DNA of 9,150 bases from Escherichia coli (GTDB taxonomy: Bacteria > Pseudomonadota > Gammaproteobacteria > Enterobacterales > Enterobacteriaceae). The stretch lies in the NCBI RefSeq assembly GCF_003334255.1, contig NZ_QOWU01000091.1, one strand, 5' to 3'. The translations under genes and the position numbers were made by a program. Positions 5,127-8,372 of this stretch are shown piece by piece; the first letter of the stretch is position 1, and every line of letters begins with the position of its first letter. The notes below the pieces were generated by a model. It had not been told where the DNA came from, ran no database searches, and saw nothing but the letters and a program-made list of their open reading frames with translations.

Positions 5127-7517
5127 TTAAAATGAAAACGCTGGTTCATCATCCTCAGCTATAATTCTGTACCCCATCGCTTTATAACCCCGCTGACGTT
5201 TATCCCACATTCTGAGCAGCACAGGATACGCAGTGTCCACAAAATCAATGATCCTGACATCGCTTTTACCTGTATGCTCTCTGTGAAGACGCCCTGCATA
5301 CTGCTGTAACGTCCCTTTCCATGACACAGGCATGGCAAGAATCAGCGTATCCAGCGGAGGGTGGTCAAATCCTTCGCCTATAAGTTTACCGGTTGACAAC
5401 AAAATACGAGGAGAATCAGGAGGAAGAGCATTCAGTCCGGATATCAGCATCGCACGCTTTTTTTTCGATAGTCGACCGTGGAGAATAAAGGGAGACAATT
5501 TCAGTGAATTCATCACTGATGCTATAGCATCCAGATGCTCTGTACGTTCAGTCAGTACCAGAACTTTACGCCCCTGCCCAAAAGCTTTCATGGCTTCTTC
5601 AGCTATCGCCACCGTTCTGTCATGATCCAGAGCAATTTCTCTGAAAATATCCTGGATTCTCGCATCCGATGGTAAATGACCAGATGTAAAACGGGAACGG
5701 GTCAGCACCTCCAGATTATGTGGGTTTTCCTTCGGGCGGGCCACTATATGGCGAATGGCACCACAGTACATAAAAATAATGGGGTGCAGGCCATCCCGTC
5801 GGATTGGTGTTGCCGTCAGGCCAAGCAGATATCTGGCATTCGTTTCCTTCAGAATCGCAGAAAATGAAACCGCACCAATATGATGGCACTCATCCACAAT
5901 GATTTGCCCATAATTCCTGACCAGAGGTTCAACTTCTCCGTATCTGGATATAGACTGCATCACCGCAATATCAATATTGCCACAGGGTTTACGTTTACCT
6001 CCCCCGATAATACCAATATTGTCACCGACCTGCAGAAACACCGCGAGACGCTCCTGCCACTGCTTCAGCAATTCAGTCCGGTGTACCAGTATCAGTGTAT
6101 TCACTTTCCGTCTGGCAATCACTGCCGCCGCGGTAACTGTCTTACCAAAAGCCGTTGGAGCACAAAGTACACCAGTGTCATAACGGAGTAATGACGAAAC
6201 GGCCTCTTCCTGCTCCGCTCTGAGGTTTCCGGTGAAAGCCACATTACATTCTGTGCCCACAGATCGTTTGTCGATTAATTCTGCAGCAATATTGTTGTCC
6301 CTGAGGAAGGATAAAGCACTGTCCAGGCATCCCCGGGGCAACGCAATATGTTGCGGGTAATTCTCCGCACAACCTGTAACACGGGGCTTATTCCAGACTG
6401 ACATACGCATTGCCTGAGCTTTATAAAACTCAGGGTTCGGAAATGCTGCCAGCCGAATAAGTCGGTTAGTCAGAACCTGAGGTAATTGCGCTTTTTCGAA
6501 ATAGATCTGGTTTGCCACCGTGATTTTCAGCGGTTCAGCAACAGAAATATTCAGTCTGTTTCCTGATGATTTTTTCTCTTCCCACGGCGTACCCAGGTCT
6601 TCTTCGTTGATAAAACTCACATCCAGAGGATGGATACTCCCTGTAGCCCGTAATATCGTCGGTGCTATATCCTGCACATTCATCGGGATCACCGATGCAA
6701 GAAAAGCCCATTGATCAGGATAAGGCTGGAGATTCATATCAACAAAAACACTGCCCCCCGATTCACGCGGTCTTTTTTGCAGAGGTAACGCGATAAGATT
6801 ACCAAATCCCCCTTTTGGCATAGTATCCTGGTTAGGAAATAATCGGTCATAAGAACTCAATCGCAGTTGTCGGGTCCGACTACACGTATAGCTAATAACA
6901 GCAGTCCCCAGACGGCGAGCTTCGTGGGCCGAAACTCGTGAGGAAAAAAATATCCAGACATGCGCTCCCTGACGTGAACGGGATATTTCCAGCGCAGCGG
7001 GTACACCCAGCTCATCACAGGATCGCATGAATGCGGATGCATCCTTCTGCCATTCTGCTTCATCAAAATCAACAGCCAGAAAATAACAGGAATCATCTTC
7101 CAGCAACGGATATAGCCCGGCAGTATGGGTACCTGCCAGATGGTGGTAGATGACGAGATCAGATACAGGAATCAACTGACGGTGAGTGCAGTCCCCACAT
7201 TTTATCCGGGGCTTACCGCATATACCCAACTGCCATTCGTTAGCGCAGGCAGGCGAATACCCTGATTTGCCGCTGGTTTTACTTTCCCATCGAAGGGCCC
7301 ATACATCATCACGCCCACGAAACAACCGACGAAATAATGCAACCTTCTCATTGGTGGATAATACAGAAACGCGCTGCACAGAGATCGGCGGTTTACGTCG
7401 CCATTCAATCCCATGAGCTTCAAGTAATGAGACCAGACGGGCATTTTCTGCCCTCAATGCAGCTAATTCATCGCTGTCAGATTTATGAACCATATTCGTT
7501 ACCTGTATCCGATCCAC
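5127..7517 (-). CDS. Fusion protein: N-terminal archaeo-eukaryotic primase (AEP/PrimPol)-like domain plus C-terminal DExH superfamily-2 helicase
   Basis: 796-aa ORF (GTG at 7515..7517; first ATG at 7491..7493 with AGGT upstream). Helicase motifs: I APTAFGKT, II IIVDECHH, III LGLTATP, V LLSTGKLIGEGFDHP, VI QQYAGRLHR. N-terminal half: LAVDFDE (AEP motif I-like DxD, ~7062..7070), GAHVWIFF (motif II-like), and Cys cluster C-x8-C-x6-C-x2-C around residues 91-110. The AEP assignment is inference from motifs. Confidence 0.85.
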   Translation of the reverse strand: MDRIQVTNMVHKSDSDELAALRAENARLVSLLEAHGIEWRRKPPISVQRVSVLSTNEKVALFRRLFRGRDDVWALRWESKTSGKSGYSPACANEWQLGICGKPRIKCGDCTHRQLIPVSDLVIYHHLAGTHTAGLYPLLEDDSCYFLAVDFDEAEWQKDASAFMRSCDELGVPAALEISRSRQGAHVWIFFSSRVSAHEARRLGTAVISYTCSRTRQLRLSSYDRLFPNQDTMPKGGFGNLIALPLQKRPRESGGSVFVDMNLQPYPDQWAFLASVIPMNVQDIAPTILRATGSIHPLDVSFINEEDLGTPWEEKKSSGNRLNISVAEPLKITVANQIYFEKAQLPQVLTNRLIRLAAFPNPEFYKAQAMRMSVWNKPRVTGCAENYPQHIALPRGCLDSALSFLRDNNIAAELIDKRSVGTECNVAFTGNLRAEQEEAVSSLLRYDTGVLCAPTAFGKTVTAAAVIARRKVNTLILVHRTELLKQWQERLAVFLQVGDNIGIIGGGKRKPCGNIDIAVMQSISRYGEVEPLVRNYGQIIVDECHHIGAVSFSAILKETNARYLLGLTATPIRRDGLHPIIFMYCGAIRHIVARPKENPHNLEVLTRSRFTSGHLPSDARIQDIFREIALDHDRTVAIAEEAMKAFGQGRKVLVLTERTEHLDAIASVMNSLKLSPFILHGRLSKKKRAMLISGLNALPPDSPRILLSTGKLIGEGFDHPPLDTLILAMPVSWKGTLQQYAGRLHREHTGKSDVRIIDFVDTAYPVLLRMWDKRQRGYKAMGYRIIAEDDEPAFSF

Positions 7518-7647
7518 TGAGGCACCACGGCAGAAATTCGGGTCCCCTACACTGATGACAAAGCGCCCCGCCCTCTTCTGCCTATTAACTCAAGCACCTC
7601 CCAACAACTTACAGAAACTTAATTCTAATACCTAATACAGCTGTAAT

Positions 7648-8211
7648 TCAGTTGTGTCGTGGTCGGCCGCGGTTACTTTTTTCAGGAAGCCTGCTACGGC
7701 CCAGAATAATACCGTGTTCTTTCTGATCCTGTTTAGCCAGGTAGCTGAGGGCGTAACGTAAGTCGTCTACCGCAGATTTATCACTATAGTGAATCACGTG
7801 ATCGATACGCACCGGGTATTTGTCTTTAGCCCGGCACAGATGAAAATAACCCTCCCCTTCCGTGATCCGCCTCCAGATATCCCCCAGTTGCCTGGATATC
7901 TGATAAGAGTTCTTGTGACGTTGTCCATCCAGATAGCCGATAAAATGAATATGAAGTCCCTTGTTTGACGTATATTCCATTACCCAGTAATATCCTGCCA
8001 ACATCGTTTGGGCTTCGCTAAGTAAGCGGTGCATTTCAATACACATACTGTGCTTACAGGAATGACCAAAACTGGGCGTGTCTTTCCTGTAGGCAAAATC
8101 AATTCTGAAAGGTAACAGTTTAGAAAAACGTTGAAACAGACCTTCCATGTGTTCATTCACATCTTTCAGAATCGCGAAATTCATTTCGTAATTGGGGTTA
8201 GCATTATACAT
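7648..8211 (-). CDS. HUH-endonuclease-like protein (YagK/YfjJ, inovirus Gp2-like rolling-circle initiator family by resemblance)
   Basis: 187-aa ORF with ATG at 8209..8211 and AAGGA ~8 nt upstream. It carries an HUH motif (GLHIHFIGY, ~7942..7950) and, ~63 aa downstream, YALSYLAK (Y-x3-Y-x2-K), the two-tyrosine pattern of superfamily-I rolling-circle Rep nickases. Confidence 0.7.
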   Translation of the reverse strand: MYNANPNYEMNFAILKDVNEHMEGLFQRFSKLLPFRIDFAYRKDTPSFGHSCKHSMCIEMHRLLSEAQTMLAGYYWVMEYTSNKGLHIHFIGYLDGQRHKNSYQISRQLGDIWRRITEGEGYFHLCRAKDKYPVRIDHVIHYSDKSAVDDLRYALSYLAKQDQKEHGIILGRSRLPEKSNRGRPRHN

Positions 8212-8341
8212 TTTATAGTCCTTACTTTATAAAACTCACAGGAAGAGGAAATTATGTAAATGCTGAGGGTACAGAAACGTCGTACCACGGCATTAATAAA
8301 AGAGATAACCAGCAGTACAGACAACCTGTTAAAACTGTTTT

Positions 8342-8372
8342 GTATTACCTCATTACAGCAATGAGGTAATAC
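8342..8372. repeat. Perfect 13-bp inverted repeat with 5-nt loop (GTATTACCTCATT-ACAGC-AATGAGGTAATAC)
   Basis: Direct inspection; the arms are exact reverse complements. It lies ~130 bp upstream of the HUH gene start in the AT-rich tract. No U-tract follows on either strand. Confidence 0.8.

Follow-up and report, generated by a model that had tools for sequence, protein, structure and literature searches.

Genes and features of the locus

The stretch of DNA considered here (9,150 nucleotides of Escherichia (E.) coli contig NZ_QOWU01000091.1, referred to below as the window) harbors, on its minus strand, a small gene encoding a protein that resembles HUH-type nucleases and, downstream of it, a large gene encoding a fusion of a primase-polymerase (PrimPol, AEP) domain and an SF2 helicase (Table 1). 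In an original prediction, made from the sequence alone, these two open reading frames (ORFs) were described as co-oriented, about 130 bp apart and located in a neighborhood of an Rpn nuclease, a decayed type I restriction-modification (R-M) system and insertion sequence (IS) ends, all of which is borne out by the present analysis. They were also read as an uncharacterized, split module for replication or defense that matches no named system, and this interpretation is not supported. Judged by its sequence, the large gene is iee, the already characterized IS-excision enhancer (IEE), and the two genes are neighbors via shared island ancestry, not halves of one machine.

The large ORF is open from a GTG codon, which would yield 796 residues. 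The start used in RefSeq and in all database homologues is the ATG codon at 7493, which gives a protein of 788 residues that is 100% identical to one E. coli entry (P0001), and sequence comparison makes this ATG the more likely start of iee. The gap between the two genes is 130 bp if the GTG start is used and 154 bp with the ATG start. Both ORFs are real, intact genes rather than chance ORFs, because the ratios of nonsynonymous to synonymous substitution rates (dN/dS) relative to the alleles of E. coli O157:H7 Sakai, 0.24 for the large and 0.13 for the small gene, show purifying selection on both.

Table 1. Coordinates of genes, functional residues and other features of the window.
Feature	Position	Strand	Basis or remark
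Large ORF	5127..7517	minus	796 aa from GTG at 7517
iee, IS-excision enhancer, PrimPol (AEP) + SF2 helicase fusion (assigned by sequence)	5127..7493	minus	788 aa, ATG at 7493
AEP / PrimPol domain of IEE	6663..7349	minus	Pfam AEP-TOTE
D142 codon	7068-7070	minus	AEP catalytic residue
D144 codon	7062-7064	minus	AEP catalytic residue
H178 codon	6960-6962	minus	AEP motif B
D216 codon	6846-6848	minus	AEP catalytic residue
SF2 helicase core of IEE	5280..6227	minus	ResIII, DEAD, Helicase_C matches
K451, motif I	6141-6143	minus	SF2 helicase core
DECH box	5883-5894	minus	SF2 helicase core
Arginine finger R735	5289-5291	minus	SF2 helicase core
Small HUH-type (inovirus Gp2 / YagK-YfjJ-like) protein gene, ECs_1304 homologue	7648..8211	minus	187 aa
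H87-I-H89 codons	7945-7953	minus	HUH motif
Y157 codon	7741-7743	minus	SYLAK tyrosine, with K160
Spacer, Gp2-like gene to iee	7494..7647	minus	Consensus scan
AT-rich 18-nt motif GGTTAATTAGTATTATTA	8884..8901	minus	Upstream of, and co-oriented with, the Gp2-like gene
Perfect 13-bp inverted repeat, 5-nt loop	8342..8372		DNA fold z-score -5.1
shosT remnant, C-terminal half of ShosTA PRTase toxin	4729..5109	plus	PADLOC ShosT 2.8e-25, profile positions 99-213 of 237
IS629/IS1203-type IS3-family element, left terminal 77 nt, from terminal TGAACC	9074..9150	plus	75/77 identical to Sakai IS1203/IS629
IS110-family transposase fragment	63-683		Cargo debris
iolR	906-1739		Cargo debris
EpmB fragment	1979-2287		Cargo debris
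Type I N6-methylase pseudogene pieces	2445-3285		Cargo debris
Rpn-family nuclease gene, intact	3478-4455		Cargo

Identity of the large gene

Aligned without gaps over its full length, the large protein is identical to ECs_1305 of Sakai at 738 of 783 residues (94%). ECs_1305 is named "IS-excision enhancer IEE" in RefSeq, resides in the integrative element SpLE1 and has been characterized both genetically and biochemically (PMC9943667; bioRxiv 10.1101/2023.06.07.543989), i.e., the large gene does belong to a named system. Profile searches agree with the primase-like and DExH helicase domains originally proposed, with Pfam matches to AEP-TOTE (residues 57-285), ResIII/DEAD (431-573) and Helicase_C (647-746). 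The first of these (PF22548, 5.1e-98) covers model positions 1-228 of 230.

Calvo et al. (PMC9943667) name D142, D144, D216, H178, Y128, K451 and R735 as catalytic. All of them are found in the window IEE, as is the DECH box, and they are invariant or nearly so across an alignment of 30 homologues (39-61% identity). A cluster of cysteines (C83, C92, C99 and C102) lies N-terminal to the AEP domain's catalytic residues. The large protein thus agrees with the IEE family in every sequence feature compared, and the family activity is predicted for it. Other profile libraries place it less specifically; it matches the PADLOC model "PrimPol, CRISPR-associated" strongly (1.8e-141) and the NCBIfam model PrimPol_Msp at 1.4e-23, with 83 bits against a family cut-off of 200. 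The NCBIfam matches of the window proteins are sub-threshold helicase and PrimPol matches only.

More than 95% identity to the O157 IEE is found in 98.8% of E. coli IEE proteins (PMC9943667). At 94% relative to Sakai, the window protein falls outside this band, and its gene is a minority allele. The likeness to the Sakai IEE extends from the AEP-SF2 helicase architecture and the catalytic residues to the ECs_1304 neighbor, the AlpA/YfjI backbone and a nearby IS629, and the difference lies in the location, i.e., the window allele resides in the thrW/proA-iol island whereas that of Sakai resides in SpLE1.

Published activity of IEE

The activities of IEE are taken from the literature. The iee gene has been known since 2011. 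It was discovered because every O157 strain in which IS629 excision is high possesses it; deletion of iee lowers this excision, a plasmid copy restores it and an active transposase is required (bioRxiv 10.1101/2023.06.07.543989). In K-12, cloned iee increased excision of elements of the IS3, IS1 and IS30 families (same source), and iee driven by PBAD raised IS3 excision on its own in MDS42, a K-12 derivative described as devoid of all mobile elements, i.e., iee acts without the small gene (PMC8860574). Together with transposase, IEE removes copy-out-paste-in ISs and gives rise to adjacent deletions.

In purified form, IEE is an error-prone AEP polymerase that depends on Mn2+ and joins 3' overhangs sharing at least 4 bp of homology (microhomology-mediated end joining), a reaction for which both domains are required (PMC9943667). 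There are two proposals for the mechanism: either the ends are joined once excision has taken place, or the primer is realigned in the course of the copy-out step (bioRxiv 10.1101/2023.06.07.543989). The end-joining and polymerase chemistry is common to IEE, the CRISPR-associated PrimPol CAPP of Marinitoga and the LigD PolDom (PMC9943667). The AEP domains of these proteins are related, but the match of the window protein is far below the family cut-off, there is no CRISPR context and the fusion partner is another one.

The small HUH-like gene

The small protein is 96% identical to ECs_1304, whose gene immediately precedes iee in SpLE1, with the same order and orientation as in the window. It was originally noted for two motifs typical of rolling-circle initiators and for the absence of a helicase, which is an accurate description; HIHFIG spans residues 87-92 and YALSYLAK residues 153-160. 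In an alignment of 19 sequences including K-12 YfjJ, residues H87, H89, E79, Y157 and K160 are invariant, and the second tyrosine, Y153, is common and not invariant. Profile searches yielded only weak Pfam matches, to REP_ORF2-G2P (i-E 1e-3) and YagK_YfjJ_C (0.016), and no NCBIfam match; a search of PDB sequences with a Gp2-like profile returned chance matches only. The homologues are named "inovirus-type Gp2 protein" in RefSeq, and the predicted fold appears to resemble that of Rep nucleases. The small protein would accordingly be HUH-type nuclease-like, an assignment that is well supported by the motifs and moderately supported by the fold.

The family is mostly restricted to Enterobacterales, with almost no relatives in phage records and few close ones in plasmid records. 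A literature search on ECs1304 found nothing. The C-terminal residues 181-185 (7648-7662) read RGRPR, a tail that resembles an AT-hook core and is nearly invariant in the Gp2-like family.

The closest comparison in K-12 is offered by YfjJ of CP4-57 and YagK of CP4-6 (DUF3296), which are likewise small and HUH-like and whose genes come right behind alpA and yfjI in P4-type islands, at the border with variable, often defensive cargo. YfjJ is distant from the window protein (26% identity over 93 aa) and lacks both the RGRPR tail and the 18-nt motif described below. In the original prediction, a parallel was drawn to the yfjJ-family gene of CP4-57 that lies beside the antiphage helicase gene yfjK/abpB. 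This adjacency is found in K-12, and in both cases a helicase gene and a yfjJ-family gene are neighbors in an island of this type; however, abpB is convergent with yfjJ, not co-oriented, its product is no IEE homologue and lacks an AEP domain, and the window contains no ORF like AbpA of the AbpAB (YfjL/YfjK) system. The large protein was also considered as a homologue of AbpB and rejected, as the similarity (22% identity over 148 aa, E 0.014) is confined to generic helicase motifs.

Linkage of the two genes

Among 5426 complete E. coli genomes, a DNA search found the Gp2-like gene in full length in 1560, iee in full length in 684 and the entire 3.8-kb block in 671. Outside E. coli, loci of IEE homologues (47-81% identity) were collected from 80 species, one locus from each, and 70 of these 80 loci include at least 1 kb of upstream sequence. 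A hidden Markov model of the Gp2-like family matched none of them, the window itself giving the only match. Clustering of the neighbors at the 80 loci revealed no conserved partner; no neighbor family occurs in more than 10 loci, and the clusters are partly inflated by spurious ORFs of high-GC sequences. IEE homologues at 62%, 56% and 48% identity adjoin toxin-antitoxin genes, a TPR protein gene or an AAA_21 gene.

The converse holds for the small gene, as no iee was found near four Gp2-like genes outside E. coli (Erwinia, Citrobacter, Yersinia and Limnobaculum), all of which have AlpA nearby. In Erwinia the Gp2-like gene is followed by AlpA, one more gene and a type I R-M system, and in Citrobacter by genes for a Dam-like methylase and an Eco57I-type protein, with an integrase and a DUF3987 gene also present. 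In Yersinia AlpA follows the Gp2-like gene, and in Limnobaculum the Gp2-like gene follows AlpA. The pair of Gp2-like and AEP-helicase genes is consequently not co-conserved across lineages or anywhere outside one E. coli island lineage.

The 62%-identical IEE homologue (L005, 2845-9166) is accompanied by a winged helix-turn-helix and nucleotidyltransferase-like gene pair, read as AbiE-like from the translations. A Mg-chelatase/ComM-like gene flanks this group, as a fragment on one side and as a full copy on the other, which looks like the insertion of a small island at comM.

Organization of the island

In the islands compared, the backbone runs from AlpA through the DUF3987/YfjI protein to the small gene, the last two being separated by a spacer of roughly 800-980 bp; the annotation shows an integrase in Sakai and EcN and none in the thrW islands. 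The cargo that follows the small gene varies. Sakai and Ecol_AZ146 have iee in this place, EcN has transposase debris, and ECCWS199 has a group II intron together with sugar-transport genes. In the two iee-less islands, EcN and ECCWS199, homology to the window stops at 7656 and 7644, respectively, which is where the small gene has its stop codon. The window is located in the thrW/proA-iol island, and the order AlpA-YfjI-ECs_1304-iee is the same as in SpLE1.

Because the partner gene is absent at homologue loci and the backbone recurs with other cargo, the tight linkage within E. coli is best explained by a single island lineage having been inherited. The small gene belongs to the island backbone and is not a dedicated partner of iee. 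Very probably, the window represents the junction between backbone and cargo of an island of the SpLE1/CP4-57 type, where the HUH gene is the last backbone gene and iee the first cargo gene, and where IEE together with transposase excises ISs. The Gp2/YfjJ-like protein travels with the integrase, AlpA and the DUF3987/YfjI protein, and IEE with an active transposase would excise copy-out-paste-in ISs of the IS3, IS1 and IS30 families, IS629 above all. As proposed for the Mn2+-dependent AEP polymerase, this would proceed by microhomology-mediated joining or primer realignment, the helicase helping to bring the ends together.

A canonical substrate is at hand, as the IS629/IS1203-type element, which is multi-copy in E. 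coli genomes, lies beside iee in the window. Its end interrupts the AT-rich spacer that separates the yfjI-like gene from the Gp2-like one, and synteny with other islands reaches no further than 9073. On the other side of iee, homology of the window with other iee islands starts at about 4775, within the shosT remnant. This remnant is convergent with iee, and ShosA and the N-terminal half of ShosT have been deleted in the window; intact ShosA (DprA-like) and ShosT occupy the same position, convergent with iee, in other E. coli (e.g., L098, 6111-7627), and in Salmonella the ShosTA pair is found without iee. The ShosT PRTase-like ORF or its DprA-like neighbor was considered as a partner of IEE and rejected; both are absent from the 80 homologue loci and belong to the independent ShosTA system.

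Relative to Ecol_AZ146, the window is about 100% identical from 90 to 5250, save two short stretches of lower identity, and from about 5250 to about 9000 (iee, Gp2-like gene and spacer) the identity is 88-98%, about 94% overall. Because the identity drops from about 5250, this comparison implies that a different iee-to-spacer segment has recombined in, with a probable breakpoint near the 3' end of iee.

Several observations weigh against the interpretation of the locus as a junction of backbone and IS-excising cargo. In 671 of the 684 genomes, iee follows the Gp2-like gene directly and in the same orientation, and no terminator is predicted between them; because of this near-constant adjacency and the lack of a predicted terminator, the genes may be co-transcribed or have a lineage-specific functional link. 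Furthermore, IS excision by the window allele is predicted from that by the Sakai allele, from which the protein diverges by about 6%. Finally, the AEP domain is labeled "TOTE conflict system" by Pfam and NCBI, and numerous homologues are fused to a PLD-like (HxK) domain at the C terminus or to further accessory domains, both of which hint at roles beyond IS excision.

Candidate cis-acting sites of the small gene

We infer that the small HUH protein acts on behalf of the island, and the most natural guess is that it nicks the island for replication or transfer after excision driven by AlpA. The region upstream of the gene contains a short conserved element. A single copy of the 18-nt motif GGTTAATTARTATTATTA, with at most two mismatches, was found in 14 of 15 sequences that bear a Gp2-like gene (including L001, L003, L010-L012 and L093-L100), always upstream of and co-oriented with that gene at a distance of 150-950 nt; these 15 sequences amount to about eight independent contexts, the others being near-duplicates. 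The motif is thus present at each gene of this family for which the upstream sequence is long enough. No copy was found in 1.28 Mb of other fetched loci, nor upstream of yfjJ in K-12. In its extended form, the conserved core reads approximately AATTARGGTTARTTARTRTTATTA. The motif is a candidate cis site for the HUH protein, either an operator or an origin or nick site.

The perfect inverted repeat lies about 130-160 nt upstream of the Gp2-like start. This hairpin is kept in SpLE1 of Sakai (12 nt, 92%), the one other E. coli island checked, and it has no counterpart upstream of distant Gp2-like homologues. A global alignment of the upstream regions of Gp2-like genes was uninformative beyond the short motif, and a scan of the window against Rfam gave no matches. 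Within the spacer between the genes, a consensus scan of the minus strand detected no terminator-like site; just upstream of this spacer, within the 3' end of the Gp2-like gene, a weak promoter-like site is found at 7735..7706.

A more specific proposal, which we consider tentative and rather doubtful, is that the small protein nicks at or near GGTTAATTARTATTATTA and thereby lets an excised island of the CP4-57/SpLE1 type begin rolling-circle replication or transfer, with iee perhaps co-transcribed and adding priming or unwinding in the E. coli lineage. Nicking would use the invariant HxH/Tyr site, and the RGRPR tail, absent in YfjJ of K-12, might bind to AT-rich DNA; the small gene adjoins an AT-rich spacer with a GC content of about 0.37.

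Alternative explanations

An alternative role of IEE is that of the core of an antiphage or antiplasmid defense system ("TOTE conflict"), IS excision being a side activity. Such a role would agree with the name and accessory domains of the family, with the strong match to the CRISPR-associated PrimPol model in PADLOC and with the occurrence of homologues among toxin-antitoxin, AAA_21 and ShosTA genes. However, PADLOC assigned neither protein to any named defense system, no partner gene is conserved over the 80 loci, the E. coli protein has no nuclease effector domain and none of the papers in the library searched reports phage or plasmid protection by IEE; the phenotype that has been measured is transposase-dependent IS excision. 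The label "TOTE conflict system" derives, for the window protein, from the Pfam domain alone, and a literature search for "TOTE", including the possibly related "PRTase-CE", found no description of such a system. A defense core is quite unlikely for the E. coli protein, and the IEE family may have a wider conflict role.

Some members of the family are considerably longer, as read from their sequences. In P0230, P0234, P0254 and P0278 (about 930-1100 aa) the PLD-like HxK domain is C-terminal, and other long members have extra N-terminal domains that look flavodoxin-like or nucleoside-phosphorylase-like.

Less likely still is the split rolling-circle initiator, in which nicking would fall to the HUH protein, and unwinding and priming to the AEP-helicase, in replication of the island: adjacency and co-orientation in 671 E. 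coli genomes, HUH and tyrosine motifs with an apparently Rep-like predicted fold, intact primase-polymerase and helicase domains, the absence of a predicted terminator between the genes and an upstream motif and hairpin that could be an origin all fit such a machine, but none of the 80 IEE-homologue loci of other species (70 with at least 1 kb upstream) has a Gp2-like gene, the Gp2-like homologues of four other genera lack an adjacent iee, islands with the same backbone and without iee lose homology at the Gp2-like stop codon, the backbone already has a primase-helicase-type protein (DUF3987/YfjI), and IEE has a different, demonstrated activity that needs no island partner. The MDS42 strain in which IEE acts alone is presumably devoid of CP4-57 and CP4-6 as well, and would therefore have neither yfjJ nor yagK.

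Implications

IEE shapes IS-driven genome change in pathogenic E. coli, and to this picture the window contributes no more than an allele that has diverged somewhat and resides in another island. The small gene, present in full length in 1560 of the 5426 complete E. coli genomes, is separable from iee and forms a conserved part of the backbone of a very common island family, and the conserved upstream motif makes its function testable. If the small protein does nick at this motif, a function would be given to the YagK/YfjJ-type genes of the cryptic prophages of K-12.

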